Source: an uncultured Gammaproteobacteria bacterium
GTDB lineage: Bacteria > Patescibacteriota > Patescibacteriia > UBA2591 > UBA6264
Length of the DNA: 64,000 bases
Direction: 5' to 3'
Assembly (NCBI GenBank): GCA_964596735.1
Contig: CAZQVF010000001.1
Span: forward strand, 74,135 to 138,134
In this document: positions 30,591-48,289 of the stretch, piece by piece
Layout of the letters: every line of letters starts with the position of its first letter
Position numbering within the stretch: position 1 is the first letter of the stretch
Program-made: the position numbers and the translations under genes
Notes under the pieces: generated by a model
The model's input: only the letters and a program-made list of their open reading frames with translations
Databases searched by the model: none
Told to the model about the DNA's origin: nothing

Positions 30591-31490
30591 ATGAAAACAA
30601 AAGATTTTAACCGAAAAAAAGAAGACTATTACAAAGGAGAGGCAGAAAAATGGGATCTTAGAGAGAGCTCATCTCGTCCCAGTCCAGAGAATGTTAAGCA
30701 TTATAATCAATTGGTGAAATCAGTTCTAGGCAATAAGAAAAATCCTAGAATTGTTGTTTTAGGATCAACGCCAGAAATCAGAGAGATGCTCTATAAATAC
30801 TATTTTCTTAATAAAGCAAAGATTATTTGTTTAGAACTTTTGCCAGCCATGTATTATGGAATGTCTAATTTAGTTAAACATAAATCTCCAAATGAAAAAT
30901 TTGTTCAAAGTGATTGGTTAAAAATGCCCTTTAAAAAAAACAGTATTGATATTTTTATTGGAGATTTAATCACGGGTAACATTTATAACAAGAAAGATAG
31001 AGAAAAATTATTAAGATTGATTAAAAAATGCTTAAAAAAGAATGGAGTTTTTCTTGAAAGACATCTTTACATAACTCCAAGGGTAAAAATAAAAGATGTT
31101 AAAAAACATTTATTTAGTTTTGTTCCAAAGATTATAAATGAAAAAATAAGCATTAATGCTGCGGCTACTTCTTTTTTGGCTAATTTGGTTGTTGCAAGTT
31201 GGTATCAGAACATAGAGAGGAAGCTTTCTATGATTTATTTTGAAAAAGAAATTAGAAAATTAAAAAAATATTTTCAAAAAAAGAATTTATCCTCTCAAGA
31301 CAGAATTGCCAAAGCCATATTTGATCACTTTCAGCTTTTAGGAGGAAAAAAAAGATATTGGACTTATGGGACCAAGGAACAGGAAGAAAAAGAATTAAGA
31401 GAATATTTTAAAATAGAAAAGAGATTATACGCTAAAGACTTTTATTCTGCGTCTAATGTGCCAATTTATTTATTAAGACCTAAAAAGTGA
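30591..31490 (+). CDS. array paralog 1: class I SAM-MTase-like protein (LGATPE family)
   Basis: Shares the family blocks: N-terminal W..W....RPS..E, RIVVLGSTPEIREML (motif I position), CLELLPAMYYGM (post-I), SDWLKMPFKKNSIDIFIGD (motif II-like), CLKKNGVFL (motif III-like), C-terminal IYLLRPKK. Confidence 0.8.
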   Translation: MKTKDFNRKKEDYYKGEAEKWDLRESSSRPSPENVKHYNQLVKSVLGNKKNPRIVVLGSTPEIREMLYKYYFLNKAKIICLELLPAMYYGMSNLVKHKSPNEKFVQSDWLKMPFKKNSIDIFIGDLITGNIYNKKDREKLLRLIKKCLKKNGVFLERHLYITPRVKIKDVKKHLFSFVPKIINEKISINAAATSFLANLVVASWYQNIERKLSMIYFEKEIRKLKKYFQKKNLSSQDRIAKAIFDHFQLLGGKKRYWTYGTKEQEEKELREYFKIEKRLYAKDFYSASNVPIYLLRPKK

Positions 31491-31491
31491 T

Positions 31492-32319
31492 ATGAAATCA
31501 TGGGATAATATTAAAAAATCAGAATGGCGAGGATTTGCTGAAAAATGGAGAGCTCTTAATCCCCCCTATAAACCCTCGAGAGAAAGAATAGATATTTATC
31601 ATTATTTAATTAAAAAATATGTTAAAGGCAATAAAGCTTTAGTTTTAGGGGCAACGCCTGAGATTAGAGATCTTTTAGCCAAACTAAAATTCAAAGTAAC
31701 TCTATTAGATATTAGCTTGCCAATGGTTAGGGCAATGACTTTTTTAAAAAAGACCAGGAATAAAGAAAAAATTGTTATTGGCAATTGGCTTAAGGCTAGG
31801 TTTAATGAAAAGTATGACCTAGTTATTGGTGATTCAGTGATTAATAATCTTTTGCCTGGTCAATACACTAAGTTTTTTAAACAGGTACAGAGATTTTTAA
31901 AAAATGACGGTATTTTTATTTCTCAAGGCGTTTTTTTATCAAAACCAATAAGTAAGCATAGAATTTCTATTAAACAGATTATTAATAAGGCAAAGAATAG
32001 GCCTGATTATTATAGAATTTATTCAAATAAGGCTTATGACTATTTAACATGGTCGGTTTCTCAGACTAAAAAGCATTTAGCTAATTTTGGAACATTGAAT
32101 GAGATCTGGCGCCAAAAATTGGAAAATGGACAGATAAGCAAAAAAGAATTTAAATTATTAGATTTTGATCTTCCTGAAGACTTGACAATCTCGTTTTTTA
32201 CCAAAAAAGAATTTGAAAGAACCCTTTGTAAATTTTGGCAAATACTTGATCAAACTCATGAAAAAAGCCATCGGGTTCACAAAGATTTTTATCGCATTTA
32301 TGTTTTAAAAAAGAAATAA
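31492..32319 (+). CDS. array paralog 2 (LGATPE MTase-like)
   Basis: ALVLGATPEIRDLLAK, TLLDISLPMVRAM, GNWLKARFNEKYDLVIGDSVINNL, FLKNDGIFIS, ...IYVLKKK; starts 1 nt after the previous stop. Confidence 0.85.
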   Translation: MKSWDNIKKSEWRGFAEKWRALNPPYKPSRERIDIYHYLIKKYVKGNKALVLGATPEIRDLLAKLKFKVTLLDISLPMVRAMTFLKKTRNKEKIVIGNWLKARFNEKYDLVIGDSVINNLLPGQYTKFFKQVQRFLKNDGIFISQGVFLSKPISKHRISIKQIINKAKNRPDYYRIYSNKAYDYLTWSVSQTKKHLANFGTLNEIWRQKLENGQISKKEFKLLDFDLPEDLTISFFTKKEFERTLCKFWQILDQTHEKSHRVHKDFYRIYVLKKK

Positions 32320-32320
32320 G

Positions 32321-33169
32321 ATGACAGTAAAAAATCCGAAAACAGAAACATGGAGAAAATTTATTGAAGGCTGGTCTAAATTGACCAGTCCGGGCCGACC
32401 AACAAAAAAAGAAATCATTATTTATAAAGAATTCGGATTGGCAAAACTAAAGAAAAAAGGGGCAAAAACTTTAGTCCTTGGCGCCACTCCTGAAATAAGG
32501 GATATGTTGGCAAAATATAATAATCTACAGGTTCATTTAATTGATATTAATATTGATAATTGTTTAGCAATGAGCGAGTTGATGGAAAATAAAACAGCAA
32601 AAGATGAAGAAACATGGATGAAGGCTAATTGGCTAAATAATCCTTTACCAGAAAATTATTTTGATTTAATTTACGGAGATTTTGTTGTTTGCAATGTTCC
32701 CTTTGAAAAGCAGAACAAATTTTTAGCCAATATTAAAGGATGGTTAAAAAAAGAAGGGTTGTTTATTACCCGTTGTACAAGCATAACCTCAGAATACAAA
32801 GAATTATCTTTAAGGGAATTTTGTCAGTTATTCAAAGATAAGCCGGTTAATCTAAAGACAATTAATCATTTTTGGGAATTAGGCGTTTACTTGGGAGAAA
32901 TTGCTGAAGAAAACAGGTTTAGTCCGGGCGTTTTTTATAAACGCTTAAGAAATTATCTTAGAAAACATCCTAATAAAAACATAGATAAAATATTAGAGGC
33001 TGGGGGATTTCTTTATCCCTTAGAATGGACCTGGTCTCTTTGTCCCAAAAAAAGAATTGAAAATTTGCTTTCAAAACATTTTGTGACTAAAAAAAGAGAA
33101 TTTGACACTAAAATGAATTTTATTTATCCGAATTTTTATCCTATTTATTGCTTGAAACCTAAAAAATAA
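32321..33169 (+). CDS. array paralog 3 (LGATPE MTase-like)
   Basis: TLVLGATPEIRDMLAKY, HLIDINIDNCLAM, ANWLNNPLPENYFDLIYGDFVVCNV, WLKKEGLFITR, IYCLKPKK. Confidence 0.85.
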   Translation: MTVKNPKTETWRKFIEGWSKLTSPGRPTKKEIIIYKEFGLAKLKKKGAKTLVLGATPEIRDMLAKYNNLQVHLIDINIDNCLAMSELMENKTAKDEETWMKANWLNNPLPENYFDLIYGDFVVCNVPFEKQNKFLANIKGWLKKEGLFITRCTSITSEYKELSLREFCQLFKDKPVNLKTINHFWELGVYLGEIAEENRFSPGVFYKRLRNYLRKHPNKNIDKILEAGGFLYPLEWTWSLCPKKRIENLLSKHFVTKKREFDTKMNFIYPNFYPIYCLKPKK

Positions 33170-33170
33170 T

Positions 33171-34040
33171 ATGGAAAAAAGAACAAAAATGTGGCAAAAG
33201 ATTACCCGAGATTATTGTAAGTTTGTTATTCCAAATCGGCCCAGTCTTGACGATACAAGGAATTATGCCATAGCCATTAATCAAGTATTAAAAAATAAAA
33301 AAGAACCCAAAATATTAGTGATGGGCTCAACCCCAGAGATACGCAGATTTTTGTTTACCTACACCTGTCTTTTTAATGCTCAAGTGTATTGCGTTGATTT
33401 TAGTCCAAATATGTATAAGTCAATGACAGATTTTATAAACAAAGCAGAGTTAAAAGAAAAATATATCAAGGCAAGCTGGTTAAAAACAGGGCTTAAAGAC
33501 AATTTTTTTGATTTAGCAGTGGGCGATGAAGTTATTTGTAATATTGAACCCAAAAAGCATAAAGGGCTTTTTCAAGAAACATCAAGAATCCTTAAAAAAG
33601 ACGGCTATTGGGTCACTCGACATAACATGTATCTTCCGAATCAAGCCAAACCCAAAACAATTATTTTAAACATTGTTAAAGATTTAAAACAAAAGAAATA
33701 CAGTTTTCAAGAAGCAATTCATTATCTTTTCATCACTTTATTTTACAGTCTGGTTCAAACAAACAAACAGCATCGACTTAATCAAGCAGAACAGATGAAA
33801 GAAATGAGAAAGGTATATAAAACCTTAAAAAATGATTTAGATAAAAGAGTATTAAAAGAATTGATTAAACATTTTCAAGGAAATTGGCAATCTACCTATA
33901 GTTATCATTGGTATGTATTGTCTAAAAAAGACAGTGAAAAAGAATTAAGAGAATTTTTTACTATTAAAAAGATTCTAACTCCTCGCGATTATATTACAGC
34001 CAAGAATTCACCGATTTATTTATTGAAAAATAGAAAATAA
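33171..34040 (+). CDS. array paralog 4 (LGATPE MTase-like)
   Basis: ILVMGSTPEIRRFL, YCVDFSPNMYKSM, ASWLKTGLKDNFFDLAVGDEVICNI, ILKKDGYWVTR, IYLLKNRK. Confidence 0.85.
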   Translation: MEKRTKMWQKITRDYCKFVIPNRPSLDDTRNYAIAINQVLKNKKEPKILVMGSTPEIRRFLFTYTCLFNAQVYCVDFSPNMYKSMTDFINKAELKEKYIKASWLKTGLKDNFFDLAVGDEVICNIEPKKHKGLFQETSRILKKDGYWVTRHNMYLPNQAKPKTIILNIVKDLKQKKYSFQEAIHYLFITLFYSLVQTNKQHRLNQAEQMKEMRKVYKTLKNDLDKRVLKELIKHFQGNWQSTYSYHWYVLSKKDSEKELREFFTIKKILTPRDYITAKNSPIYLLKNRK

Positions 34041-34057
34041 TAAGATATTTTAATTAT

Positions 34058-34902
34058 ATGGTAATTACAAAAAAACGAAAAAACGTTCAAGCCTGGTCAA
34101 AACAAATGGCACAAAATAGAAAAAAAGGAGACCACCAACTGCTCCTAGTATAAGCGAGCAGAAGATTTATGAAAAATTTTTAAAACAAGCTTTAAAAAAT
34201 AAAGAAAACCCTAAGGTTTTAATTTTAGGAGTTACCCCAGAGCTTCGCAATATTGCCTTAAAAAATAATTGCCAGGTTGTGTCTGTTGACATTAGTCGGG
34301 AAATAATAAAAGCAATGAAACCCTCAATAAAATATAAAGGGTTAAAAAGAGAAAAGATTATTAATGCTAACTGGCTTGCTGTTTCTTTTCCAAAGAATAG
34401 TTTTGATTTGGTAATGGGAGATGCACCCTTAACCAATCTTCTTTCTATTCATGATCTTAGAAAATTATTATTTAAAGTCCGGAGAGTATTAAAGCCAAGG
34501 GGTTTTTTCTTAATAAGAGAACTCATTCATTTATCAAATAAAAAAGCTCCATTTAAAAAAATAGTTTCTGATTATCGGAAGAATAAGATAAAATGGGAAG
34601 ATTTTTTTATGGACCTTAGATTTTATACGTTTTTTAATAAAGCCTATAATCCAAAAAATAACCTTCTTTCCGCTGATAAGATTTTTCAGGAAATTGAAAA
34701 AAAATATAAGCAAGGCGAGCTGACAAAGAAAGAATATCAAAGAATTATGATTCTTGAAAATCGAATGAAGAATTTAGTTTTATTTAAAGAAAAATTTATG
34801 AAATTAATCAAAGAAAATTTTTCCATTATTTCTATTAAAACAGATAAAGAATTTAAATTCTGTCAATATTTACCAATTTATTTGTTGAAAAATAGAAAGT
34901 AA
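34058..34902 (+). pseudogene. array paralog 5, frameshifted (or -1 frameshift-dependent) copy
   Basis: The N-terminus (MVITKKRKNVQAWSKQMAQN) reads in one frame to a TAA at 34151. The family-conserved continuation (RRPPTAPSISEQKIYEKF...VLILGVTPELRNIAL...) lies in the -1 frame, beginning inside a GAAAAAAAGG A7 run at 34120-34126. The track only reports the GTG-started C-terminal 207-aa piece. Confidence 0.7.
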
Positions 34903-34903
34903 T

Positions 34904-35749
34904 ATGGCTAAGAAAAAATTTAGTATAAAAATGAAACAGAGCTGGTTTCAAATTGCTGAGAAATGGAGAGAATATAATTATCCAGTTAAACCTTCTCCCA
35001 TGGAGACAAGATTTTTTGAAAAAGAAATAAAGGATTTATTAAAAAGGGAAAAGAGAATTAAAGCTTTAGTTTTAGGGGCAACCCCTGAATTTAGAGATTT
35101 ATTGGCTAAGCATAAAATAGACACTGTTTTAATTGATAATAATTTAACCTCTGTCAAGGCAATGACTTTTTTAATGAAAAGAAAGACTAAAAAAGAAAAA
35201 ATAGTGGTTGGGGATTGGTTAAAGATGCCTTTTAAAGAAAATACCTTTGATATAGTTTTCAGTGATTCTGCTCAGGACAATATTAAGTTTAAAAATTTCA
35301 ATAAGTTTTTTAATAATGTTTACCAAATTTTAAAGCCAGAGGGATATTGGTTTTTTGCTGCGGTTAATGTGGAAAAAAATCAAAGTATTTCTTTAAAAAA
35401 ATACATTAAAAAATACAAAGAAAAACCAAAGATTTTTAAAGATTTTAGAAATTTTGCTTCTTATTTTTTTCGAGTCGGTCGCGGTCCAGATTTTTATAAA
35501 CCCAAAACCAGAAGTTTTGATTTTGCTAAAATTGATCAAAGGGTAAAGGCCCTTATTGAGGAAGGTAAAATTTCTTCTAAAGCCCTTAAAGATATTTGTT
35601 TTCATTTAAATTATGAACAGGTTTTAATTGGTCAAACCGATTTTAAGAAAATGTTAAAAAAGAATTTTAATATTTTTAAAGAAATGAAAAAAGATAAACA
35701 TCCGGGCATGGAAATAAAGTGGGCGGCAATTTTAAAACCAAAGAAATAA
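34904..35749 (+). CDS. array paralog 6 (LGATPE MTase-like)
   Basis: ALVLGATPEFRDLLAKH, VLIDNNLTSVKAM, GDWLKMPFKENTFDIVFSDSAQDNI, ILKPEGYWFFA, ...AILKPKK. Confidence 0.85.
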   Translation: MAKKKFSIKMKQSWFQIAEKWREYNYPVKPSPMETRFFEKEIKDLLKREKRIKALVLGATPEFRDLLAKHKIDTVLIDNNLTSVKAMTFLMKRKTKKEKIVVGDWLKMPFKENTFDIVFSDSAQDNIKFKNFNKFFNNVYQILKPEGYWFFAAVNVEKNQSISLKKYIKKYKEKPKIFKDFRNFASYFFRVGRGPDFYKPKTRSFDFAKIDQRVKALIEEGKISSKALKDICFHLNYEQVLIGQTDFKKMLKKNFNIFKEMKKDKHPGMEIKWAAILKPKK

Positions 35750-35750
35750 T

Positions 35751-36638
35751 ATGGCCAAAAAGAAATTAGACAATCCTATTTGGGACGCAAAACAACAAAA
35801 ATGGTGGGAGTTTTTTTGGGGAGGAGTTAAAGCTCCTTGGCGACCGACAAAAAAGGAAATTAAATTTTGGGAAGGGAAAATTCAACAAGCTTTTAAAGAA
35901 AAAGATTTTTTACGTGTTTTAATTTTAGGGGCTACTCCAGAATTTAGAGACATGCTGACCAGGTATAAAGATAAAACAGAAGTGACCCTATTAGACGCAA
36001 ATCCGGCAGTTAAAGCAGCCATGGATAAGCTAAGGAAAAAGAGAAATTCTAAGGAAAGAATAGTTTGGGGTGATTGGCTAAAGATGCCCTTACCGTCTAA
36101 TTATTTTGACATTGTTTTTAGTGATGAAGTATTTGAGAATATTGCTTTGGAAAATCATGACAAGTTACATCAAAATATTAAACGGGTTTTGAAAAAAGAT
36201 GGTTATTTTTTAGATGGTCGGATTTGTTTAGAAGACTTTTTTAAACATCCCTTACATCTAGAACAAGTTTTAAGAAAATATAAAAGGGAGCCAAGGTTTT
36301 TCCACGATTCTTATAACCGGCTTTGGTATTTGTATCGTTTATGCCCTTCAGAAAAGCTCTTTTATAGTAAAAAAGAGCAAGCAGTTTTAATGAATAAAAA
36401 GGCAGCAGAAAAAGTATTTAATAGGGCTAAAAAAATAGGCATAAAAAACCCAAAATATTTAAATTGGGATCCAAGATTAGATTATAAGGAGCTTGATTAC
36501 AAGGAGATAGATTTAGCTAGTTTAAAAAGAGTAAAGTCAATGATTGGAAAATATTTTAAAATAGAAAAAACTTATCAGGATTTATTTCATCCAGTAATGA
36601 AAATAAAATATAATTTTGTCTGCCGTCCTAAAGAATAA
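35751..36638 (+). CDS. array paralog 7 (LGATPE MTase-like)
   Basis: VLILGATPEFRDMLTRY, TLLDANPAVKAAM, GDWLKMPLPSNYFDIVFSDEVFENI, VLKKDGYFLDG, ...FVCRPKE. Confidence 0.85.
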   Translation: MAKKKLDNPIWDAKQQKWWEFFWGGVKAPWRPTKKEIKFWEGKIQQAFKEKDFLRVLILGATPEFRDMLTRYKDKTEVTLLDANPAVKAAMDKLRKKRNSKERIVWGDWLKMPLPSNYFDIVFSDEVFENIALENHDKLHQNIKRVLKKDGYFLDGRICLEDFFKHPLHLEQVLRKYKREPRFFHDSYNRLWYLYRLCPSEKLFYSKKEQAVLMNKKAAEKVFNRAKKIGIKNPKYLNWDPRLDYKELDYKEIDLASLKRVKSMIGKYFKIEKTYQDLFHPVMKIKYNFVCRPKE

Positions 36639-36641: not shown

Positions 36642-37499
36642 ATGGCAAAAAAAGGTTTAATTAATGGAAAAGAATGGGTGGATTATTTAAAATTTTGGTC
36701 GATTATGGCTCCGCCGGCCCGGCCCTCTAGTTTTGATATAAAGATTTGGGAGACATATATTAAAAAAATATTAAGACAAAAAAGAGATATTAAAGCTTTA
36801 GTTTTTGGCGCCACTCCTGAAATCCGCGATTTATTAGCTAAATATAAGATTTTCACTACTCTTTTAGATGTTAATCCAGCCATGATTAAAGGGTTGATGA
36901 AATTCATGAAGTATAAGAAGCAACGAAACGAGAAAGTAATTATTGATAATTGGCTAAAAATTAGAGAATTGTTTTCTGAAAATTCTTTTGATATAGTGAT
37001 GGGCCATGATTTTTTTAATAATATTCCTTGGAGTTCTCATAATAAATTAGCCAGCAGCATTAAATGGGTTTTAAAAAAAGATGGCTATGGATTAATTGTT
37101 TCTCCAATTTTAAGAAAAACAAAAAATTTGTCTAGCGAGCATTTTGTTACGCTATATAAAAAAAATCCAAAATACTTTAAAGAATTTTGTCATCGTTGGT
37201 ATGTAGTAGATGTTTTAAAAAAATTAGATTATAACAAAAGAACCAGACAGTTTTTTATAAAAAAAATAAAAGAACGTTTAATCAAAGAAGCAGAAAAACA
37301 AGGTTTGTCAGAAAAGGATATTAATCAGATGTGGGTTTTTAAAACATTTAATATAGCTGACAATTATATTGGAGTTCACCCGCCCTTAAAAGATTTATTA
37401 AATGTTTTTAAGAAATATTTTAAAATTGAGAAAATGTCTTATTGGTCAAAACAGGGGAACAAATCCCATTTTAATTTTGTTTTAAGACCTAAGAAATAA
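36642..37499 (+). CDS. array paralog 8 (LGATPE MTase-like)
   Basis: ALVFGATPEIRDLLAKY, TLLDVNPAMIKGLM, DNWLKIRELFSENSFDIVMGHDFFNNI, VLKKDGYGLIV, ...FVLRPKK. Confidence 0.85.
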   Translation: MAKKGLINGKEWVDYLKFWSIMAPPARPSSFDIKIWETYIKKILRQKRDIKALVFGATPEIRDLLAKYKIFTTLLDVNPAMIKGLMKFMKYKKQRNEKVIIDNWLKIRELFSENSFDIVMGHDFFNNIPWSSHNKLASSIKWVLKKDGYGLIVSPILRKTKNLSSEHFVTLYKKNPKYFKEFCHRWYVVDVLKKLDYNKRTRQFFIKKIKERLIKEAEKQGLSEKDINQMWVFKTFNIADNYIGVHPPLKDLLNVFKKYFKIEKMSYWSKQGNKSHFNFVLRPKK

Positions 37500-41892: not shown

Positions 41893-42744
41893 ATGACAAA
41901 ACAAATTCATGGCACAAAATATTGGACAGATTTAGCTCAATGGTGGCGAAAGGTTGCTCCACCGGTTAGACCATCAAAGTCGGATATTAAGATTTATGAG
42001 AGATTTTTAAAAAAGGTAATTAAGAACAAGAAACAACCCAAAATTTTAATTTTAGGAGCGACACCGGAAATGCGAGATTTAGCCGCTAAGTATAGAGCGG
42101 AAACAACTGTTTGTGATATTAGTTTGGAAATGATAATAGCTATGATTCAGTTGATGACTCATAAAAAGGCTGGCCAAAAAGAAGTTTGGGTTAAAGCAAG
42201 TTGGGTGACAGTACCATTGAAACATAATTATTACGATGTGATTTTAGCAGATGGGGTGATATGTAATATCCCCTGGTCAGAAGTAAATCAATGGTGGAAA
42301 CATTTAAATCAATTACTTAAACCAAAGGGTGTTTTTATCACCCGAGCCTTCTGTTTTACCTCTAGAAATGAGATTGATAAAAGTTTGAATAATCTTATTA
42401 AGAAGATTTTAAAAAAGAGAAATCCTTTAGCAACCGATTTTGGTCAATTGAAAATAACTTTAGAAATCGCAAGTTATAATTCTAAAACTAGAACGGGCAG
42501 TAATGCCAAGTATAGAGAATTATTTTTTAAACATATTGAGAATTTTTCAGTTTTTCAAACAAAGGCAAACAAGATTTATCGTCAACTTGTTAAGATTTAT
42601 CCACCTAAGCCAGTTAAAGTTTGGCGAATACCAACAAGAGCTCAGAGAGAAAAAGAAATTAAAAAGTATTTTAAGATTATTTTTGGTATTCCTTCTCCAT
42701 CTTTTCCAACTATACCGACAATTTATTTATTAAAGAAAAAATAA
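41893..42744 (+). CDS. array paralog 14 (LGATPE MTase-like)
   Basis: ILILGATPEMRDLAAKY, TVCDISLEMIIAM, ASWVTVPLKHNYYDVILADGVICNI, LLKPKGVFITRAF. Confidence 0.85.
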   Translation: MTKQIHGTKYWTDLAQWWRKVAPPVRPSKSDIKIYERFLKKVIKNKKQPKILILGATPEMRDLAAKYRAETTVCDISLEMIIAMIQLMTHKKAGQKEVWVKASWVTVPLKHNYYDVILADGVICNIPWSEVNQWWKHLNQLLKPKGVFITRAFCFTSRNEIDKSLNNLIKKILKKRNPLATDFGQLKITLEIASYNSKTRTGSNAKYRELFFKHIENFSVFQTKANKIYRQLVKIYPPKPVKVWRIPTRAQREKEIKKYFKIIFGIPSPSFPTIPTIYLLKKK

Positions 42745-42745
42745 C

Positions 42746-43621
42746 ATGCCTAAGAAAAAACAAGAAAAAAGATTTATTGCCCCCTGGAAAGCCTATGCTG
42801 CTCGTTGGCAAAAATACTGTACTCCACCAGGCCGGCCATCTAAACAAGCCATGGCCATGTATCGCAAATTTGCCAAACAATCTTTTTCTAATTTAAAACG
42901 CAAACCACGAACCTTGGTTTTAGGAGCGACTCCAGAGGCAAGAGATGTTTTAGTTGGGCTTAAAGCAGAGGTCAGTATTATTGATTTTAATATGGAAATG
43001 ATTTTAGCCATGACAGAATTGGTTAAAAAGAAAAATCCCAATGAGATTATAGTTAAAGCAAATTGGCTTAATATGCCCTTCCCCCCTAATTATTATGACG
43101 CTGTGTTAGGGGATCTTGTTTTATGCAATGTGCCCGGACCATTACAAGCCAGGTTTTTAAAAGAAGTCAAAAGAGTTTTAAAACCGAAAGGATATTTTAT
43201 CACTAAAATGCATGTTATTCCTAACGATTGGCAGTTTAAACCCATTGATTGGGTTTTGGATAAATATGCTAAAATCCCTGTTTGTAAAAATACAGCTATT
43301 GAACTATTTGGGTTTCTTCATAACACCATTTATCAGCCAAAAACCCATATAATGGATATTAGCCTAATTAGAAAAGGATTAACAAAGTATTGGAAAAAAG
43401 GAAAGTATAAACATCCTAGTGCCAAGATTAGTAAATTACTTAATCATATTTGGGAGATGTTTAAGCCCATGGACAAAACATGGTGTACAGGCTATGAAAA
43501 AGAAATTAGCAAACAGGTTTCCCAATATTTTAAAATCCGAAAGAAAATAGTTTTAAACGATTGTTATTTCCGTGAGATTGATGAATCATTTCCTTTTTGG
43601 GTTTGCCAAGTAAAAAAATAA
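42746..43621 (+). CDS. array paralog 15 (LGATPE MTase-like)
   Basis: TLVLGATPEARDVLVGL, SIIDFNMEMILAM, ANWLNMPFPPNYYDAVLGDLVLCNV, VLKPKGYFITK. Confidence 0.85.
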   Translation: MPKKKQEKRFIAPWKAYAARWQKYCTPPGRPSKQAMAMYRKFAKQSFSNLKRKPRTLVLGATPEARDVLVGLKAEVSIIDFNMEMILAMTELVKKKNPNEIIVKANWLNMPFPPNYYDAVLGDLVLCNVPGPLQARFLKEVKRVLKPKGYFITKMHVIPNDWQFKPIDWVLDKYAKIPVCKNTAIELFGFLHNTIYQPKTHIMDISLIRKGLTKYWKKGKYKHPSAKISKLLNHIWEMFKPMDKTWCTGYEKEISKQVSQYFKIRKKIVLNDCYFREIDESFPFWVCQVKK

Positions 43622-43622
43622 T

Positions 43623-44465
43623 ATGTTAAAACCCCATGAGCTAAATAGATCTTATTGGATGCGAAGTGCTGAGATTTGGCGCAAGTTAAAGCCGCCAGAA
43701 AGGCCCAGTAAAGAGGAAATGGGGATTTATGAAAAACACCTTAAAGAAATATTGCAGTTTAAAGGTAATAAATTAAGAGCTGTTATTCTTGGAGCTACTC
43801 CAGAAATTCGAGATTTATTAGCCAGATATAAAGTTTCAGACGTTACTATTGTTGATGTTAATCCTAATATGGTTCGGGCGATGAAAGAATTACTTAAAAT
43901 CTCAAAGGGCAGAGAGAAAATAGTCATTGCTAGTTGGTTAAATACGGGGTTGCCGTCTCATAAATATGATGTGGTTTTCTGTGATCACGGTACAGCCCAC
44001 ATCAAGTTTCTTCAGTGGCCTAAATTTTTTAAGGAACAAAAAAGATTTTTAAAAAAGAATGGCTTTGTTTTACATAATATCGTTACTCGGCCATTTAAGG
44101 AGGGCATCACGGTAAGTGATTTAGTTAAAATTTATAAGAAAAATAAATTAAAATTTTCTCGTCTTGATAAATTTTATTATAATTATTTAGTTTTTCTAAA
44201 ATTGAAAGATGTGAATGGAAAACACCACAAAGATTTAGGAGTTCTTGATAAAAATTTAAAAAGTTTTATCAATAAAAAGGTGATTGATAAAAATGATTAT
44301 CAAAAATTAAAGACTCCATGGGAAGATGCAAAAATTGCTCTTCCTCCGCAGGAGGTTGTTGATGAGATTTTTCAGAAATTTTTTAATTTAAAAACATTAG
44401 AACATGGATCAAAACACCCGATTTATAGTTGTCATCAAATATACTTTGGTCAAGTAAAAAAATAA
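43623..44465 (+). CDS. array paralog 16 (LGATPE MTase-like)
   Basis: AVILGATPEIRDLLARY, TIVDVNPNMVRAM, ASWLNTGLPSHKYDVVFCDHGTAHI, FLKKNGFVLHN. Confidence 0.85.
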   Translation: MLKPHELNRSYWMRSAEIWRKLKPPERPSKEEMGIYEKHLKEILQFKGNKLRAVILGATPEIRDLLARYKVSDVTIVDVNPNMVRAMKELLKISKGREKIVIASWLNTGLPSHKYDVVFCDHGTAHIKFLQWPKFFKEQKRFLKKNGFVLHNIVTRPFKEGITVSDLVKIYKKNKLKFSRLDKFYYNYLVFLKLKDVNGKHHKDLGVLDKNLKSFINKKVIDKNDYQKLKTPWEDAKIALPPQEVVDEIFQKFFNLKTLEHGSKHPIYSCHQIYFGQVKK

Positions 44466-44470
44466 AGTCT

Positions 44471-44764
44471 ATGAAAATTAAAATACCACCTGTTTCCATT
44501 GACACTGACAAACTAATTAAGCGCTGTGGTTATGCTGAGTTAAGAAGAAAAACAGGGGAGATAAGTTATGTTCGTCGTTTACGTGGTTATCAATACCCAC
44601 GCTTTCATGTTTATATTGAAAATGGATATTTTAATCTTCACTTAGATCAAAAGGCCCCTTGTTATCAAGGGTCTTCAGCTCACGCCGGAGAATATGAGGG
44701 AGAAATTTTAGTAAAAGAAAAAGAAAGAATAAAAGAGATCATTAATAAGTATAGAAATGAATAA
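44471..44764 (+). CDS. hypothetical 97-aa protein, unrelated insert within the array
   Basis: MKIKIPPVSIDTDKLIKRCGYAEL...RFHVYIENGYFNLHLDQKAPCYQGSSAHAGEYEG; none of the paralog blocks are present. The track calls it from 44429, overlapping the upstream gene; the ATG at 44471 was preferred. Confidence 0.4.
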   Translation: MKIKIPPVSIDTDKLIKRCGYAELRRKTGEISYVRRLRGYQYPRFHVYIENGYFNLHLDQKAPCYQGSSAHAGEYEGEILVKEKERIKEIINKYRNE

Positions 44765-46427
44765 AAAAGGTTGGACAAAAAGATGGAAAAATGTTTCTGA
44801 ATGGTGGGGAAAGTTAAATTCACCCTGGACCCCTTCTTTGGGAGAGTATAAAATCTATGAAAAGTTTTTGAAAAAGACAACAAATTTTAAAGATAAAGAT
44901 AGAAAAATGCTAATTTTAGGAGCGACGGCATTGTTAAGAGAGCTGGGGTATAAGTATGGCTATCAAATCACCTTGATTGATATAAATCAAGAAATGGTTA
45001 AAGATCAAACTAGATTTTTAGGCCTTAAAATTCCTAAAGAAAAAGTGGTTATTGGTGACTGGTTAGAAATGGATAAAATTTTTAAAAACCAACAATTTGA
45101 CGTTATCGCAGCAGATCATTCAGTTATTAATGTTAAATTTAAAAATTGGCCCAAACTTTATAAAAATATACAAAATCTTTTAAAACCTGATGGTTCGGTT
45201 CTTTGGGCAACAACTGTTTATAATCATCGAAAGCATGGTCAAGTAAAAGACTTGGTAAAAAGTTATCGGCCCAATAAATCAGAAAAAGACAGATTTATTA
45301 GAATTTATAAATTATTTGGTAATCCAAAATTTCATGATAAAAACCATGGTTTTCATTTTGGCCAAGCTGACAAGGAAATAGGAAAATTAGCCAAGAAAAA
45401 AAGTTTTTCCAAAGAGCAAATCAATGAAATGAAGTTGAATTTAGGAAACTGGACTTCAGTAATATTACAAAAAAAGAAATTTGAAGATTTTACAAAAAAA
45501 TATTTTAAAATAATTGATAATCAGAAAGATAAAAGTCATCATTTCTATAAATATCAGCAACTTTATCTTTTAAAGCACAAAAAATCACCTAAGAGAAGTG
45601 TTTCATGGAAAACTATTGCCGAAGTCTGGCCTGATTTAAAGCCGCCTTTAAGACCCTCAAAAGGAGAAATGAGGATTTATGAGAGATATTTAAAACAGAT
45701 TATTAAACAAAAGAAAGGTAAACTAACCGCCTTATTATTTGGTTTAACCACAGAAATCAGGGATATGTTGGCAAAATATGGGGTATTTGTCACCATGATT
45801 GATGTTAATCCGGAAATGGTTAAAGTGACAGAATCTTTATGTCAACAGAAAAACAGAAAAGAAAAAGTGGTTATTGATGACTGGTTAAAGTTTAATCTTA
45901 ATAAAAAGTTTGACATTATTTTGGGAGACCATGTTTTTGGTAATGTAGAGTTTAAAAAACAGCAGAGGCTTTGGAGGCAAATCAAAAAACATTTGAAATC
46001 CGACGGGTATTTGATTACAGACGTTCATTTAAGAGCTTTAAACAAGAAAATAGGTTTAAAGCAGTTTATTGAAAAATATAGAAGAAGTAAAATATTAAAA
46101 AAGAACCGAGAAGAAAAATGGTATTGGCTTTATTCTTTGGTTTATAACAATCCTGTTTTCTTTAAAAGGAAAATTAAATCAGTTTTATGGCCCTCAGTTG
46201 AAGAATTATTAAGGCAAACCAAGAAAAGAAATATTGATTTAAGTATGGCAGAAGCAAGAGAGATTGCTGATGACGTTCACATAGACAGGCCTTGTTGGTT
46301 TATGCTTCCGATGAAAAAGGAATTTGAAAAAGAATTAAAAAAATATTTTACAATGATTGATTCAGATATTAATAGAAAACACTCGGTTTATCGCTGTTAT
46401 CGCATTTATTTTGCTAAGTCAAAATAA
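44757..46427 (+). CDS. array paralogs 17+18 fused into one 556-aa two-domain protein
   Basis: Both halves carry the full block set. N-half: WKNVSEWWGKLNSPWTPSLGEYKIYEKF...MLILGATALLRELGYKY..TLIDINQEMVKD..GDWLEMDKIFKNQQFDVIAADHSVINV..LLKPDGSVLWA. C-half: WKTIAEVWPDLKPPLRPSKGEMRIYERY..ALLFGLTTEIRDMLAKY..TMIDVNPEMVKV..DDWLKFNLNKKFDIILGDHVFGNV..HLKSDGYLITD. Confidence 0.85.
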   Translation: MNKKGWTKRWKNVSEWWGKLNSPWTPSLGEYKIYEKFLKKTTNFKDKDRKMLILGATALLRELGYKYGYQITLIDINQEMVKDQTRFLGLKIPKEKVVIGDWLEMDKIFKNQQFDVIAADHSVINVKFKNWPKLYKNIQNLLKPDGSVLWATTVYNHRKHGQVKDLVKSYRPNKSEKDRFIRIYKLFGNPKFHDKNHGFHFGQADKEIGKLAKKKSFSKEQINEMKLNLGNWTSVILQKKKFEDFTKKYFKIIDNQKDKSHHFYKYQQLYLLKHKKSPKRSVSWKTIAEVWPDLKPPLRPSKGEMRIYERYLKQIIKQKKGKLTALLFGLTTEIRDMLAKYGVFVTMIDVNPEMVKVTESLCQQKNRKEKVVIDDWLKFNLNKKFDIILGDHVFGNVEFKKQQRLWRQIKKHLKSDGYLITDVHLRALNKKIGLKQFIEKYRRSKILKKNREEKWYWLYSLVYNNPVFFKRKIKSVLWPSVEELLRQTKKRNIDLSMAEAREIADDVHIDRPCWFMLPMKKEFEKELKKYFTMIDSDINRKHSVYRCYRIYFAKSK

Positions 46428-46432
46428 ATATC

Positions 46433-46461
46433 TCGACAAATATCTTATTTTTACATATAAT
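46433..46461 (+). promoter_or_regulatory. sigma70-type promoter (TCGACA-N17-TATAAT)
   Basis: TCGACA, a 17-nt spacer, then TATAAT in the 66-nt gap before the Nif3-like gene. Confidence 0.5.
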
Positions 46462-46493
46462 TAAGAACAAGATTTATTTTTAACTATATATTT

Positions 46494-47444
46494 ATGACTA
46501 TTGAACAAATTTACAATTTAGCCATTAAAATGGGCATGAAAAGCGATTTAAGAGGGGAGAGACAGGTAAAAAAAATGTTAACCCATTTAAAGAAAAGGTA
46601 TGAAAAAATGCCAGGAAAACAAAAGAAAGAATTTGACAAAGAAAAATTAACAAATCCATATTCTGATACCCGCATATTAAACAAAACAAAAAAACCAATT
46701 AAAAAGATTTTAACTGGTATTGATATGGAAGTAAGTGAACTACTTTTAGCCGAACAATTAGGTGGTGTTGACTTGATTTTAGCTCACCACCCCAGAGGCA
46801 TAGGATTAACCGGATTAGATGATGTGATGAAACTTCAGGCAGATGTTTTAAATCTTTATGGTGTGCCAATTAATATTGCTGAAAGTCTGGTTCGTTTAAG
46901 AAGAGGAGAGGTTAGTCGTTCAATTTCTTCGGCTAATCATAACCGAGTCGTTGATGCAGCTAAACTATTAAAAACAGGATATATGTGCATGCATACCCCA
47001 GCTGATAATTGTGTGGCTAGTTTTTTAAACAAATTGATTAAAAAGAAAAAACCAGAATATGTAGAAGATCTATTAGATCTATTAAAAACCATTCCTGAAT
47101 ATCAACAAGCCATGAAAATAGGAGCTGGACCAAGACTTTTTGCTGGTAAAGAAATAAATCACTGCGGCAAAATTGCTTTAACAGAAATCACTGGCGGAAC
47201 AGAGGGGTCTTCAAAGGTTTATGAAAAAATGAGTCAGGCAGGAATAGGCACAGTAGTGGCCATGCACATGAGTGAAAAAAATCGCAAAGAAGCAGAAAAA
47301 GCCCACATCAATGTCGTTATTGCCGGTCATATTGCTTCAGACTCCATTGGCATGAACCTAATATTAGATGAATTAGCCAAGAAAAAAATAGAAATCATCC
47401 CATGTTCTGGATTAATTAGAGTGGAGAGGTTTAAGAAAAGATAA
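46494..47444 (+). CDS. NIF3/YqfO-family (GTP cyclohydrolase 1 type 2-like) dinuclear-metal protein
   Basis: KKILTGIDMEVSELLLAEQLGGVDLILAHHPRG resembles the NIF3 N-terminal block ending in HHP; distal GHIASDS histidine block; the stop is 2 nt before the next paralog's ATG. Confidence 0.5.
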   Translation: MTIEQIYNLAIKMGMKSDLRGERQVKKMLTHLKKRYEKMPGKQKKEFDKEKLTNPYSDTRILNKTKKPIKKILTGIDMEVSELLLAEQLGGVDLILAHHPRGIGLTGLDDVMKLQADVLNLYGVPINIAESLVRLRRGEVSRSISSANHNRVVDAAKLLKTGYMCMHTPADNCVASFLNKLIKKKKPEYVEDLLDLLKTIPEYQQAMKIGAGPRLFAGKEINHCGKIALTEITGGTEGSSKVYEKMSQAGIGTVVAMHMSEKNRKEAEKAHINVVIAGHIASDSIGMNLILDELAKKKIEIIPCSGLIRVERFKKR

Positions 47445-47446
47445 AT

Positions 47447-48289
47447 ATGTCAGTACAACAGAATAAAAAAGACATGTGGTTTGAAAGTATTGCCCAGCAA
47501 TGGTCTATTTATGCGCCACCAGTCACTCCTTCTAAGTCAGAATGCCAGATTATTAAAAAGTGTATTCTTAATAAAAAAAGGAAAAATCTTCGGATATTAG
47601 TTTTAGGGGCAACGCCAGAATTTCGTGATTTAGCCCATGAACTAAAAGCAGAAGTTACTTGTGTAGACGTTTCTGTGTCAATGCTTCAGGGGTTGGTTCA
47701 TTTAATGAAACAAAAAAATAAAGCTGATCAGGAGATATGGTTTAAAGCCGATTGGCTAACCGTTCCCTTGGCAGAGAATTATTTTGATTTTGTTTTGGGT
47801 GATTTTGTTATTGTTAATTTGCCGATTAATCTGCAGCCAAAGTTTTTTTCAAAGATTAAGCATATTTTGAGGAAGAATGGGTTTTTTATCACTCGTCACC
47901 TTTTACCATTGGACTCATTTGAGCCTTTTCCTGAGCTTATTGGCCAAGCATTAAAGAATAAGAGTTTTAACAAGAGAATGATAAACAGTTTTTCATTAGA
48001 TGTTTTGCAGTCTGTTTATGAAAAAAGAACAAAGGTGATGAAAGTAAAAAAGGTTTATTCTGAGTTTAAAAAACTTATAATTCAGGAAAAAAATAAACAG
48101 AGAAGAAAAAGGATTAAAGATTTGTTTGAAATTTATCAAGAATATTATCCTCTTGGTAAAGCTTGGTGGGGCTTATTAAAAAATCCAGGAGAAAGAGTAA
48201 TGAAGAAATATTTTAAAATTCAAGATATTAGATATGGACAGGACCATGACCGTGTGGATTATTGTCCAATTTATTTTTTAAGAAAATAA
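47447..48289 (+). CDS. array paralog 19 (LGATPE MTase-like)
   Basis: ILVLGATPEFRDLAHEL, TCVDVSVSMLQGL, ADWLTVPLAENYFDFVLGDFVIVNL, ILRKNGFFITR, ...IYFLRK. Confidence 0.85.
   Translation: MSVQQNKKDMWFESIAQQWSIYAPPVTPSKSECQIIKKCILNKKRKNLRILVLGATPEFRDLAHELKAEVTCVDVSVSMLQGLVHLMKQKNKADQEIWFKADWLTVPLAENYFDFVLGDFVIVNLPINLQPKFFSKIKHILRKNGFFITRHLLPLDSFEPFPELIGQALKNKSFNKRMINSFSLDVLQSVYEKRTKVMKVKKVYSEFKKLIIQEKNKQRRKRIKDLFEIYQEYYPLGKAWWGLLKNPGERVMKKYFKIQDIRYGQDHDRVDYCPIYFLRK

Follow-up and report, generated by a model that had tools for sequence, protein, structure and literature searches.

A tandem array of one protein family on a core chromosome

The window analysed here, a contiguous stretch of 64,000 nucleotides, carries at positions 30591-48289 of the forward strand 18 genes encoding 19 domains of a single ~280-aa protein family, as established from the open reading frame listing and translations. 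A family HMM built from the array genes detected exactly 19 domains in the window, every one of them within these limits. The first-pass annotation, which had described eighteen consecutive same-strand genes with 19 domains, was right about strand and domain number, but the family genes are not strictly consecutive. Two other genes sit between them, one conserved and encoding 97 aa (44471-44764), the other NIF3-like (46494-47444); these are the only non-family interruptions of the array.

All genes described below lie on the forward strand. The array opens with g1 (30591-31490; 299 aa), which has orthologs at 74-75% identity in loci L030 and L008, followed by g2 (31492-32319; 275 aa) and g3 (32321-33169; 282 aa), each identified by ORF call and family HMM, and g4 (33171-34040; 289 aa). 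The fifth copy, g5 (34058-34902), carries a frameshift where seven A residues follow one another (A7 run, 34117-34127), downstream of which 260 codons remain open. The frameshifted sequence is identical in the independent assembly L027, and g5 is without a close ortholog and was a singleton in clustering. The series continues with g6 (34904-35749; 281 aa), g7 (35751-36638; 295 aa), g8 (36642-37499; 285 aa), g9 (37503-38378; 291 aa), g10 (38360-39238; 292 aa), g11 (39220-40071; 283 aa), g12 (40111-40965; 284 aa), g13 (41040-41891; 283 aa), g14 (41893-42744; 283 aa), g15 (42746-43621; 291 aa) and g16 (43623-44465; 280 aa), the last of which is the reference copy, on which residue numbers and the structure model are based. 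Beyond the 97-aa gene, g18 (44757-46427) consists of two fused family domains, split near nucleotide 45585, and g20 (47447-48289; 280 aa) is the last family member.

The tight junctions noted earlier were confirmed by measurement: among 17 adjacent family-gene junctions, ten have a gap of 1 nt, two a gap of 3 nt, and two an overlap of 19 nt (one of them between g9 and g10), whereas the gaps at the remaining three are longer, at 17, 39, and 74 nt. A further gap of 66 nt separates g18 from the NIF3-like gene. This packing is consistent with the proposed one or two operons, within which the genes are probably transcribed together and coupled in translation. The two best promoter-like sites (both 11/12) are located directly upstream of g1 (30560-30587) and within the 66-nt gap preceding the NIF3-like gene (46433-46461), both on the forward strand, although these are consensus matches only and the total number of such sites was little higher than expected from shuffled sequence. 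An assembly artefact can be ruled out, since contigs from three other samples reproduce the sequence (99.8-99.96% identity over 19.5, 13.5, and 4.9 kb) and the gene order. The host is a Patescibacteria-type bacterium, as the CPR-like character of the sequence had suggested, and the array is set in its core chromosome, surrounded by ftsZ, gyrB, rpoA, groEL, dnaG, and rpoD, with mobile-element genes absent.

The copies appear to be soluble proteins: a hydropathy scan revealed no 19-residue stretch hydrophobic enough to span a membrane, and no secretion signals were found. Their pI of ~10, seen in all copies, is uninformative because the whole window proteome, including MurB, Tmk, and GyrB, is equally basic. 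Upstream of the array lies a conserved partner overlooked in the first-pass annotation, a PLP-dependent gene of the Cys/Met-metabolism family (29023-30471; 482 aa; Pfam Cys_Met_Meta_PP, E=3.8e-23), separated from g1 by a 119-nt gap with a terminator-like hairpin. The context of its PLP lysine, "SGTK", aligns with "STTK" of 5x5h, and its scores against NCBIfam equivalogs were all far below cut-off. Neighbourhood comparison across relatives led us to reject the other adjoining genes as array partners and to regard them as bystanders, namely the 97-aa gene, which encodes a conserved CPR protein that is not Trm112-like, the NIF3/DUF34-like gene (316 aa), whose synteny extends to close relatives only, and a radical SAM gene directly after the array (48291-49208; 305 aa). 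The latter is probably unrelated to the array, since the next gene in relatives encodes a Memo-AMMECR1 fusion, which makes up an AmmeMemoRadiSam-type set.

A class I fold with a rebuilt motif I

Pfam searches, PDB sequence searches, and Foldseek comparison of the structure model support a class I (Rossmann-fold) methyltransferase fold, with the nearest sequences and structures being true methyltransferases. The Pfam and PDB sequence matches are significant from just after motif I through motif VI, all profile alignments begin downstream of the motif I loop, and PDB sequences gave no significant match to the segment between motifs I and II. This bears out the initial reading, in which the later motifs are kept and the glycine-rich motif I has given way to another sequence: motifs II, III, IV, and VI are retained, motif I is G-[A/S]-T-P-E-x-R family-wide, and the acidic residue of beta1, "exceptionally well conserved" in class I enzymes (PMC1282579), is missing.

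We audited these motifs in 302 non-identical domains, with motif roles taken from Kozbial and Mushegian 2005 (PMC1282579). The motif I loop is highly conserved (G57 100%, T59 98%, P60 94%, E61 86%, R63 99%), as are D78 (94%), E98 (96%), W105 (100%), D116 (95%), and G147 (96%); position 55 is V, I, or L, position 104 is N, D, or S, and the post-beta4 residue 121 is D in 92%, H in 6% (as in g8), and E in 2% of domains. "LGATPE", previously called invariant, is near-invariant in the window: G and T are present in every copy, whereas the second motif position can be A, S, V, or L, P is replaced by T or A in the fused gene, and E by Q, D, or L in three copies (GSTPE in g1 and g4, GVTPQ in g10, GATPD in g12, GATAL and GLTTE in g18). 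A literature search for this motif I variant found no paper mentioning it.

Compared with the Methyltransf_11/25 enzymes PH0226 (1ve3) and BH2331 (1vl5), to which post-motif-I to VI matches are significant, the family keeps the beta2 Asp, the beta3 polar residue, the beta4 Asp, and the motif VI Gly. It differs from them in its motif I, which is not GxGxG, in the V/I/L that takes the place of the beta1 acid, in having its own W..W....PP.RPS segment at the N-terminus and its own helical lid of ~95 residues, and in its arrangement in arrays of up to 19 copies. The best Foldseek hits of the model were phosphoethanolamine N-methyltransferases (Plasmodium PMT, 3uj6-3ujd, and plant and nematode PMTs), and no other characterised enzymes gave a sequence alignment that reaches across the lid (query 66-260, E ~1e-10). 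Identity to PMTs is only 13-17%, however, 72% of members carry Asn where PMTs have the catalytic His132, the family lacks the canonical motif I, and there is no phospholipid-synthesis context.

Ancient copies that differ in a helical lid

Identity among copies is low, as first estimated by eye, at 22-32% to the reference copy. The most variable part, correctly placed towards the C-terminus, is the helical lid at residues ~155-250, where paralogs share 16% identity versus 35% in the core. Variable as it is among paralogs, the lid is conserved among orthologs: the ratio of lid to core identity is 0.82 between orthologs but 0.46 between paralogs, from which we predict a role for the lid in specificity.

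When 122 domains from 26 loci were clustered at ≥45% identity, they formed 67 clusters, and 16 of the 19 window copies fell into cross-genome clusters. Ortholog identities range from 45 to 75% overall, with a best ortholog at 62-75% for 14 window copies, while the nearest in-array paralogs are 30-44% identical; the only recent pair is g9 and g10 (68% identity). The orthologs are collinear and stably inherited between genomes. A recent burst of copies was considered and rejected, the copies instead representing ancient orthologous groups. Because ortholog identity exceeds in-array paralog identity, dN/dS between g9 and g10 is 0.16, and population SNPs are more often synonymous (11) than non-synonymous (6), each copy is predicted to be functional and non-redundant.

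Distribution and genomic neighbourhood of the family

The array is not the oddity of one genome that it had seemed. At least 588 clusters at 50% identity make up the family, whose members are found both in CPR bacteria and in DPANN archaea and usually stand in tandem arrays of 4-14 copies. The family HMM further showed that the number of copies varies from 1 to 19 between related genomes, and two domains are fused in g18, P0009, and P0016, and six in P0008 (1704 aa). The one source name found for the family, "class I SAM-dependent methyltransferase", is generic, in line with the earlier view that the function is undescribed.

Across 65 non-redundant loci, the commonest neighbour is the PLP Cys/Met-family gene: in 19 loci, including one from a Woesearchaeota MAG, a homolog lies no more than 3 kb from family genes. 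Alpha/beta hydrolases recur as neighbours in 12 loci, a split PEP-synthase/rifampin-phosphotransferase-like dikinase (PPDK_N plus swivel-His proteins) in 12 + 5, and a PaaK-like adenylating enzyme in 5. No RNA or ribosome-biogenesis genes were found among the surveyed neighbours, no SAH hydrolase or nucleosidase was seen adjoining any array, and nearby there was no sign of a SAM decarboxylase, of toxin or secretion genes, or of a biosynthetic core (PKS, NRPS, or RiPP precursor). Genes for MTA phosphorylase lie inside the L012 and L018 arrays (TIGR01694, 294 and 305 bits vs a cut-off of 274.85), together with an adenine phosphoribosyltransferase in L012 (TIGR01090, 221.6 vs 185.85), and L035 has genes matching these two in size and position. 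That the same family is arrayed beside a PLP enzyme in many ultra-small bacteria and archaea marks its chemistry as evidently important, and in the tiny, symbiotic-type Patescibacteria bacterium studied here, 17.7 kb goes to 19 old, individually conserved copies.

Putative function of the array

From these sequence comparisons, the family is predicted to be a CPR/DPANN-restricted subfamily of class I SAM-dependent transferases with an enzymatic role. The reading we favour, with a probability of about 0.4, is that the array encodes 19 cytoplasmic small-molecule transferases, each with its own acceptor, and that methyl transfer (SAM to SAH) is their likeliest reaction. All copies would share a cofactor-binding core, and the lid of each would select a different acceptor. 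Asp78 at the end of beta2 would contact the ribose of SAM and Asn/Asp/Ser104-Trp105 at the end of beta3 its adenine, with the Lys/Arg52-Asp116 pair and Gly147 as further retained adenosine-binding parts. The holder of the methionine end would be rebuilt, G57-[A/S]-T59-P60-E61-x-R63 replacing GxGxG and the beta1 acid being absent, such that the side chains of E61 and R63 may hold the amino and carboxylate groups, and Asp121 (His/Glu in 8% of domains) may be a catalytic or acceptor-binding residue. Acceptors are most likely small molecules, as suggested by the PLP, hydrolase, dikinase, and PaaK-like neighbours and by the lack of RNA or ribosome-biogenesis genes among them. The PLP enzyme, linked to the family across phyla, may handle the sulfur amino-acid side, for example by disposing of homocysteine (from SAH) or by supplying or processing 4-substituted 2-aminobutyrates.

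The great majority of SAM enzymes with a class I fold are methyltransferases, a base rate that favours methyl transfer. Against it, motif I has kept only one of its three glycines and the beta1 acid is lost, and class I enzymes with a rebuilt motif I are often not methyltransferases, as exemplified by nicotianamine and spermidine synthases (PMC1282579) and AZE synthase (PMC11794875). A serious rival, tentative but well above the other alternatives, is that SAM or decarboxylated SAM (dcSAM) is used without moving the methyl group, by 3-amino-3-carboxypropyl or aminopropyl transferases or by SAM lyases that release MTA. The rebuilt motif I would free or re-orient the aminobutyryl end, Asp121 would deprotonate an acceptor amine, and the PLP gamma-family enzyme, whose family performs aminocarboxypropyl (gamma-replacement) chemistry, would act on 4-substituted 2-aminobutyrates or itself use SAM. 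The absent beta1 acid and G-[A/S]-T-P loop recall nicotianamine synthase, which has F-x-G-S-G-P-x-P and is likewise devoid of the acid, and E61, in or next to the loop, recalls the spermidine synthase loop Asp that excludes the SAM carboxylate (PMC1282579); the Asp after beta4 has a counterpart in spermidine synthase Asp170. AZE synthases (AzeJ/VioH) offer a precedent as class I SAM lyases with GxxxG instead of GxGxG, including a CPR clade (PMC11794875), and MccD likewise shares a rebuilt motif I with the family. Nine distinct PDB sequences of spermidine/thermospermine synthases match repeatedly if marginally (E 0.001-0.2), always more weakly than methyltransferases, with the alignment to 1mjf spanning the motif I region, and Pfam Spermine_synth matches 4 of the 19 copies (best E 1.9e-5). 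The MTA phosphorylase and adenine phosphoribosyltransferase embedded in the L012/L018 arrays point to MTA rather than SAH as by-product, yet such genes occur in only about three related loci and may be bystanders, as the 97-aa, NIF3-like, and radical SAM genes proved to be. Also weighing against this rival, the signatures of known non-methyl SAM enzymes (GGG[DE]G, GSGP, PFNxxGN, RxxYYxxC) are all missing, the N-terminus is helical, unlike the beta-hairpin domain of spermidine synthases, the closest relatives are true methyltransferases, and no SAM decarboxylase is nearby.

It is unlikely that the copies instead methylate macromolecules, be it RNA or proteins at different sites or a single polymer that a hetero-oligomeric assembly would modify step by step. 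The two- and six-domain fusions suggest that paralogs can act side by side, and translational coupling suggests equal stoichiometry; the high pI would also fit, but is shared with the window proteome. The copies have no RNA-binding or other additional domain, their neighbours act on small molecules, the embedded small protein does not resemble Trm112, and methyltransferases with housekeeping roles on RNA or protein do not usually form arrays or vary in number as here.

More doubtful still is a non-enzymatic role, as ligand-binding or scaffold pseudo-methyltransferases that do not bind SAM, such as metabolite sensors or sequestering proteins. Rossmann-fold relatives with a spoiled motif I and no catalysis are known (sc-mtTFB, Gcd10p; PMC1282579), and the lost glycines and beta1 acid and the unmatched motif I-II segment could be read in the same way. 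Yet the replacements are themselves near-invariant polar residues, the ribose- and adenine-binding residues and the post-beta4 Asp/His/Glu are 92-100% conserved across the 302 domains, which argues for a maintained active site rather than decay, and the copies are under strong purifying selection.

Immunity-gene islands typically contain diverged paralogs in tandem, and a defence-related or host-interaction repertoire had been suggested for the array; as a defence, immunity, or host-interaction set, its paralogs would counter diverse attackers or toxins. We consider this very improbable: the sole PADLOC match, mad2 (18 of 19 copies, best E 5e-13), is confined to the generic methyltransferase core (positions 309-416 of the 492-position profile) with other MADS genes absent, and no relatives were found on viral contigs, even if the hydrolase and rifampin-phosphotransferase-like genes of related loci would fit xenobiotic inactivation. 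Secretion signals and mobile-element genes are missing, and the stable, collinear orthologs do not resemble a fast-turnover defence island. The array does share with tandem tailoring-enzyme and immunity-gene arrays a head-to-tail, same-strand, translationally coupled layout and a putatively substrate-facing variable region. Unlike those systems, it has no toxin, secretion, or biosynthetic-core genes beside it, and its paralogs are ancient, have one-to-one orthologs across genomes, and are sited on the core chromosome.

Array organization and authenticity

ORF listing and translation place 20 genes on the plus strand between positions 30591 and 48289, 18 of which are members of a single family with products of about 280 residues each. 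An HMM built from the copies identified 19 family domains in the window, all inside this interval, one gene (44757–46427, plus strand) being a fusion of two family domains. The non-family genes within the array, both on the plus strand, encode a 97-aa protein (44471–44764) and a NIF3/DUF34-like protein (46494–47444). Adjacent family genes meet at 17 junctions, with a gap of 1 nt at 10 of them, a gap of 3 nt at two, and an overlap of 19 nt at two more, while the gaps exceeding 30 nt in the array interval measure 39, 74, and 66 nt. The two best promoter-like matches (11/12) lie just 5' of the first copy (30560–30587) and within the gap of 66 nt that precedes the NIF3-like gene (46433–46461), and a terminator-like hairpin is located 3' of the PLP gene upstream of the array. 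Given these tight junctions, promoter-like sites, and hairpin, it is reasonable to read the array as one or two polycistronic, translationally coupled transcripts.

The first-pass annotation had named an assembly artefact as a possible refutation of the array, and this is ruled out by the agreement of three independent assemblies: contigs from three other samples match the window at 99.96%, 99.88%, and 99.82% identity over 19.5, 13.5, and 4.9 kb, and gene order is unchanged in them. In one copy, g5 (34058–34902, plus strand), a frameshift at an A7 run splits the gene. Because this frameshift recurs unchanged in the independent 19.5-kb assembly, it is a real feature of the population, reflecting either a recent pseudogene or slippage-dependent expression. 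At the run itself (34117–34127), a -1 shift at 'A AAA AAA G' would join the N-terminal 23 codons to a 260-codon body, and, at a genomic GC content of 30%, so long an open body points to either very recent inactivation or transcriptional or ribosomal slippage.

Fold and family assignment

All 19 copies matched the Pfam models Methyltransf_11 and Methyltransf_25 at E < 1e-3 (best 2.2e-12), with scores mostly exceeding the 21.2-bit gathering score. A confident AlphaFold2 model of the reference copy g16 (43623–44465), for which the 19 paralogs served as input alignment (pLDDT 86.4, pTM 0.85), consists of two N-terminal helices, a core ordered beta1-alphaA-beta2-alphaB-beta3-beta4-alphaD-beta5, a helical insertion at residues ~155–250 (hereafter the lid), and strands beta6 and beta7. 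This alpha/beta fold with a seven-stranded sheet resembles solved class I enzymes, so that the Rossmann-type fold proposed from the first reading of the sequence is borne out by the model, and no match to a non-enzymatic family was found. NCBIfam returned sub-threshold matches only, the recurrent weak one being CpaM (NF043040, at most 46 bits vs a cut-off of 180), neither Pfam nor NCBIfam was found to hold a model dedicated to the family, and a profile of the N-terminal/motif I–II segment yielded chance matches only against the PDB. The sole name given by any source is the generic 'class I SAM-dependent methyltransferase [Candidatus Moranbacteria]', and literature searches returned no paper combining 'GATPE' with methyltransferase in a relevant sense, and likewise none on CpaM or on expansions of methyltransferases in Patescibacteria. 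Neither the fold nor the superfamily is new, and these proteins already have a generic label in databases. No hydrophobic segment resembling a membrane span was detected in the 19 copies, and their high pI (~10) is ruled out as a hint of RNA binding, neighbouring housekeeping proteins being equally basic.

Conservation of the cofactor site

Motifs were audited in 302 non-identical domains from the window, related loci, and database matches, aligned to the family HMM, with motif definitions and roles taken from Kozbial and Mushegian (PMC1282579), who describe the beta1 acidic residue of class I enzymes as 'exceptionally well conserved'. Of the canonical motif I (GxGxG plus a beta1 D/E), the first glycine alone is kept (G57, 100%, g16 numbering), and beta1 position 55 is V, I, or L in 97% of domains in place of the acid. 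The residues that replace the motif are themselves conserved, with Ala (60%) or Ser (29%) after G57, then T59 (98%), P60 (94%), E61 (86%), a variable position, and R63 (99%). The pattern G.G.G is absent from every one of the 19 window copies, and Pfam alignments begin at profile position ~9–19, i.e., past the glycine loop, in every match.

Most other elements of the site are retained, including the motif II acid at the end of beta2, which serves the ribose hydroxyls (D78, 94%, plus 5% Glu), the motif IV acid (D116, 95%), its basic partner before beta1 (K/R52, 78%), and the motif VI glycine (G147, 96%). Motif III position 104, at the end of beta3 on the adenine side, is Asn (43%), Asp (40%), or Ser (12%), and is followed by an invariant W105 (100%). 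In the class I fold, catalytic or SAM-sulfonium-contacting residues are located directly after beta4, and the position directly past beta4 in this family is D121 in 92% of domains, with His or Glu as the only alternatives. Residue conservation here follows the pattern of an active site that is being maintained, with side chains replacing the usual grip on the SAM carboxypropyl end, and not one of decay. In such a site, T-P-E would form a helix N-cap, and E61 and R63 would bind the SAM amino and carboxylate groups. SAM is the most likely cofactor, since, of the four motifs that contact adenosine, three are intact.

Orthology and divergence of individual copies

The window copies share 22–32% identity with g16, and the sole recent pair is g9/g10 (68% protein identity, dN/dS of 0.16). 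Cross-genome clusters at ≥45% identity include 16 of the 19 window copies. The best ortholog reaches 62–75% for 14 copies (from loci L030, L008, L011, L007, and L012) and two have 46–52% matches only, while the nearest in-array paralog of clustered copies stands at 30–44%. Ortholog order is partly collinear between the window and related genomes. Across 26 loci, 122 domains form 67 clusters at ≥45% identity, and even in remote lineages, Magasanikbacteria and Woesearchaeota among them, many copies are nearer to a copy of another genome than to their own neighbours.

Between paralogs, identity is 16% in the lid vs 35% in the core, and between orthologs, 57% vs 69%. The lid thus looks like a specificity-determining region, and because it is diverged between paralogs yet kept between orthologs, each copy has a conserved role of its own. 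The near-identical assemblies, when pooled, show 17 distinct SNPs within the array, of which 11 are synonymous and 6 non-synonymous, a ratio pooled over the whole array as differences are too few for per-gene dN/dS. These assemblies also show clusters of SNPs in g13 (41102–41237, 8 in 136 nt) and g16 (43901–44162, 6), with ~17 kb around them identical; such clusters may be recombination or gene-conversion tracts.

Distribution of the family

When all 1.84 billion cluster representatives were scanned with HMMER, 588 proteins matched with E < 1e-30 and 1430 with E < 1e-10, among them a 1704-aa six-domain protein and several two-domain fusions, and the G-[A/S/V]-T-P-E motif was found to be family-wide. 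Scans with a pattern derived from a 5-sequence alignment detected 22 loci in GTDB genomes and 51 in JGI metagenomes, or 65 after de-replication. All named genomes encoding the family are either Patescibacteria (Falkow-, Magasanik-, Sung-bacteria, and 'Saccharibacteria') or DPANN archaea (Woese-, Aenigm-, and Nanohal-archaeota). The window holds 19 domains, followed by loci with 14, 10, 8, 8, 7, 7, and 7, and many with 4–6, while single copies occur in several DPANN loci, one of them on a 1.37-Mb archaeal contig. Since multi-domain counts recur across loci, arrays are a habit of the family, and that of the window is the largest among the loci found. The first-pass annotation had considered the array extraordinary, which overstates its exceptionality given that such arrays are common in these lineages and that the family is a clear relative of class I SAM enzymes. 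The novel elements are a replaced SAM loop that defines the family, a distribution confined to CPR and DPANN, tandem arrays that are both habitual and ancient (19 copies here), and a link, spanning both domains, with a divergent PLP enzyme and further enzymes of small-molecule metabolism.

At one locus (L004, 1125–6239), a single 1704-aa protein comprises six fused family domains and adjoins a beta-CASP nuclease and an IF-2B-like isomerase / RuBisCO / AMP-phosphorylase trio, a set typical of CPR/DPANN nucleotide salvage.

Neighbouring genes

Every ORF lying within 3 kb of a family gene was included in a clustering across the 65 loci, many of which are short. The commonest neighbour, at 19 of the 65 loci, is a homolog of the PLP gene located upstream of the array (29023–30471), usually same-strand and directly upstream of the family genes; it is present in several CPR lineages as well as a Woesearchaeota MAG. 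The encoded enzyme belongs to the Cys_Met_Meta_PP family and keeps its PLP lysine, and it represents a separate subfamily, as its best score (~140 bits) falls far under every NCBIfam equivalog cut-off (≥440). Proteins of ~340–520 aa with a C-terminal PEP-utilizers swivel-His domain, and an N-terminal part without known domain, occur at 12 loci, with up to 5 in tandem. A free-standing PPDK_N ATP-grasp protein frequently goes with them (5 loci), and the combination resembles a split dikinase of the PEP-synthase/rifampin-phosphotransferase type. The split dikinase adjoins arrays at L005 (3323–11457), L056 (11738 onward), L058, L038, L016/L064, and L023, and its one to five diverged tandem swivel-His proteins per locus constitute a second tandemly diversified family. 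Other recurrent neighbours include two alpha/beta-hydrolase families (6 loci each), also found beside single-copy archaeal genes, and a PaaK-like adenylating enzyme (5 loci).

Methylthioadenosine (MTA) salvage genes are embedded in some arrays or stand at their end. An MTA phosphorylase (MTAP) and an adenine phosphoribosyltransferase (APT) lie at 3904–6135 inside the array of L012, and the L018 genes (11649–12965) are an MTAP inside the array and, beside it, a homolog of the L012 APT gene. Both MTAPs and the L012 APT, i.e., all the genes scored, exceed their equivalog cut-offs, and ORFs at L035 match these MTAP/APT genes in size and position. The L030 array contains a nucleoside 2-deoxyribosyltransferase-like gene.

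The 97-aa, NIF3, and radical SAM genes recur beside the family in close relatives only, and we treat them as bystanders around which the array grew. The 97-aa protein is CPR-wide, has a KA1-like fold, and, in distant lineages, is found in housekeeping surroundings unrelated to the family. This rules it out as a Trm112-like shared activator, the small zinc-knuckle partner of Trm112-activated methyltransferases being absent here, and its CPR-wide housekeeping contexts also rule it out as a RiPP precursor. The radical SAM and NIF3 genes are likewise ruled out as partners by synteny confined to close relatives and, for the former, by its pairing elsewhere with Memo-AMMECR1. In these relatives (L037, 11935–13452, L053, and L060), the radical SAM gene precedes a 506-aa Memo-AMMECR1 fusion in an AmmeMemoRadiSam-type set, and it would hence be part of another system. 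In the window, the radical SAM gene (48291–49208) abuts a convergent 169-aa ORF and the Memo-AMMECR1 fusion is missing at this position.

Candidate reactions

On the evidence, the copies are best read as enzymes, not scaffolds, with small molecules, not RNA or protein, as substrates. Each orthologous group would have one acceptor specificity, with a cofactor site common to all. Methyl transfer is favoured, with a probability of roughly two in five, because of the base rate of the fold and because genuine methyltransferases are the nearest matches in both sequence and structure; the PLP enzyme would then plausibly dispose of homocysteine.

A tentative alternative is a reaction forming MTA, namely aminocarboxypropyl or aminopropyl transfer or a lyase reaction, which the PLP partner family, known for aminocarboxypropyl chemistry, and the MTAP/APT genes embedded in some arrays would both suit. 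The rebuilt motif I parallels those of nicotianamine, spermidine, and AZE synthases; the signatures looked for from all three are absent from all copies. In spermidine synthase (SpdS), a loop acid excludes the SAM carboxylate and the catalytic Asp lies past beta4; in a sequence-level comparison, possible counterparts are E61 (86%), one position past the SpdS loop Asp, and D121 (92%, otherwise His or Glu), at the post-beta4 position. Matches to spermidine synthases are marginal but repeated: the Pfam Spermine_synth model matches 4 of 19 copies, always ranked under methyltransferase models, and E-values against the PDB are at least 0.0013. Unlike spermidine/spermine synthases (PF01564), the window copies lack the GGG[DE]G loop and have two helices instead of an N-terminal beta-hairpin oligomerisation domain. 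Nicotianamine synthase has a motif I of F-x-G-S-G-P-x-P without the beta1 acid, to which the family's G-[A/S]-T-P, its acid likewise gone, is similar, but GSGP is absent in 19 of 19 copies and no nicotianamine synthase model was among the Pfam matches listed at E ≤ 1 (8 copies) or E ≤ 0.001 (19 copies). The AZE synthases AzeJ and VioH, which are SAM lyases, carry the signatures FY (N-terminus), PFNxxGN, and RxxYYxxC (PMC11794875), and a regex search found neither PFN..GN nor R..YY..C in the 19 copies.

Of similar likelihood is a specific form of this scheme, in which the G-[A/S]-T-P-E-x-R family would be a new, non-methyltransferase class I clade using the aminobutyryl/aminopropyl end of SAM and releasing MTA. 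With the PLP enzyme, split dikinase, and esterases, it would form a CPR/DPANN-specific pathway decorating or building host-derived metabolites (e.g., opine-, polyamine-, or nicotianamine-like), with one paralog per acceptor.

Macromolecular substrates, pseudo-enzymes, and defence share the remaining probability. The defence role suggested in the first-pass annotation fares poorly, as no viral relatives of the family were found, orthology is stable, the array lies in the core chromosome, and the only PADLOC match, to mad2, covers profile positions 309–416 of 492, i.e., the generic methyltransferase core; a MADS-type system is ruled out by this core-only match and by neighbours that are housekeeping or metabolic. 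Membership in the phosphoethanolamine N-methyltransferases, defined by a Tyr19/His132 catalytic dyad and phosphobase-binding residues, is also ruled out, the PfPMT His132 column being Asn in 72% and His in 3% of the family (HMM alignment) at 13–17% identity.

CPR bacteria and DPANN archaea represent a large share of microbial diversity, with genomes lacking most biosynthesis, and to our knowledge very little has been established about the chemistry they retain. That a single family takes up 17.7 kb of core chromosome with 19 individually conserved versions, and that its arrays recur in both domains of ultra-small symbionts, represents a large and conserved investment for minimal-genome organisms. 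Together with the PLP link to sulfur amino acids, it points to a selected, diversified small-molecule chemistry missing from current pathway maps of CPR and DPANN. The family is also a natural experiment in which the SAM-binding loop of the commonest methyltransferase fold has been rebuilt with Thr, Glu, and Arg for glycines, and may reveal a new non-methyl use of SAM.

Chromosomal setting and host

The array is located in the core chromosome and not in a mobile element, since its flanks encode a bacterial housekeeping set (GroEL/GroES, uS13, uS4, RpoA, GyrB, FtsA/FtsZ, L1, CysRS, MurB, DnaG, and RpoD). An archaeal origin of the window, hinted at by RtcB, archease, and an intein-bearing PEP synthase, is ruled out by GroEL, bacterial uS13/uS4, RpoA, GyrB, and FtsZ. 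The closest array-bearing genomes are Patescibacteria MAGs, and a cluster mate of the window RtcB at ≥90% identity is named 'Patescibacteria group bacterium'. Some contigs of GTDB TPA MAGs (L007, L008, L010, L011, L014, L015, and L026) are labelled 'uncultured Gammaproteobacteria bacterium'; they have CPR-type gene content and share synteny and 60–75% orthologs with the window, and the Gammaproteobacteria labels look wrong.

A large acidic ORF (1537 aa, pI 4.8, 6817–11430), without NCBIfam match, may encode a surface protein. The archease and RtcB RNA ligase pair (26369–28235) lies immediately 5' of the PLP gene region, and the order ABC ATPase, archease, RtcB, PLP gene, array is also found in L008/L053. 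Downstream of the array, the PEP synthase/PPDK-type gene (1225 aa, 52948–56625) contains an intein with a LAGLIDADG homing endonuclease.
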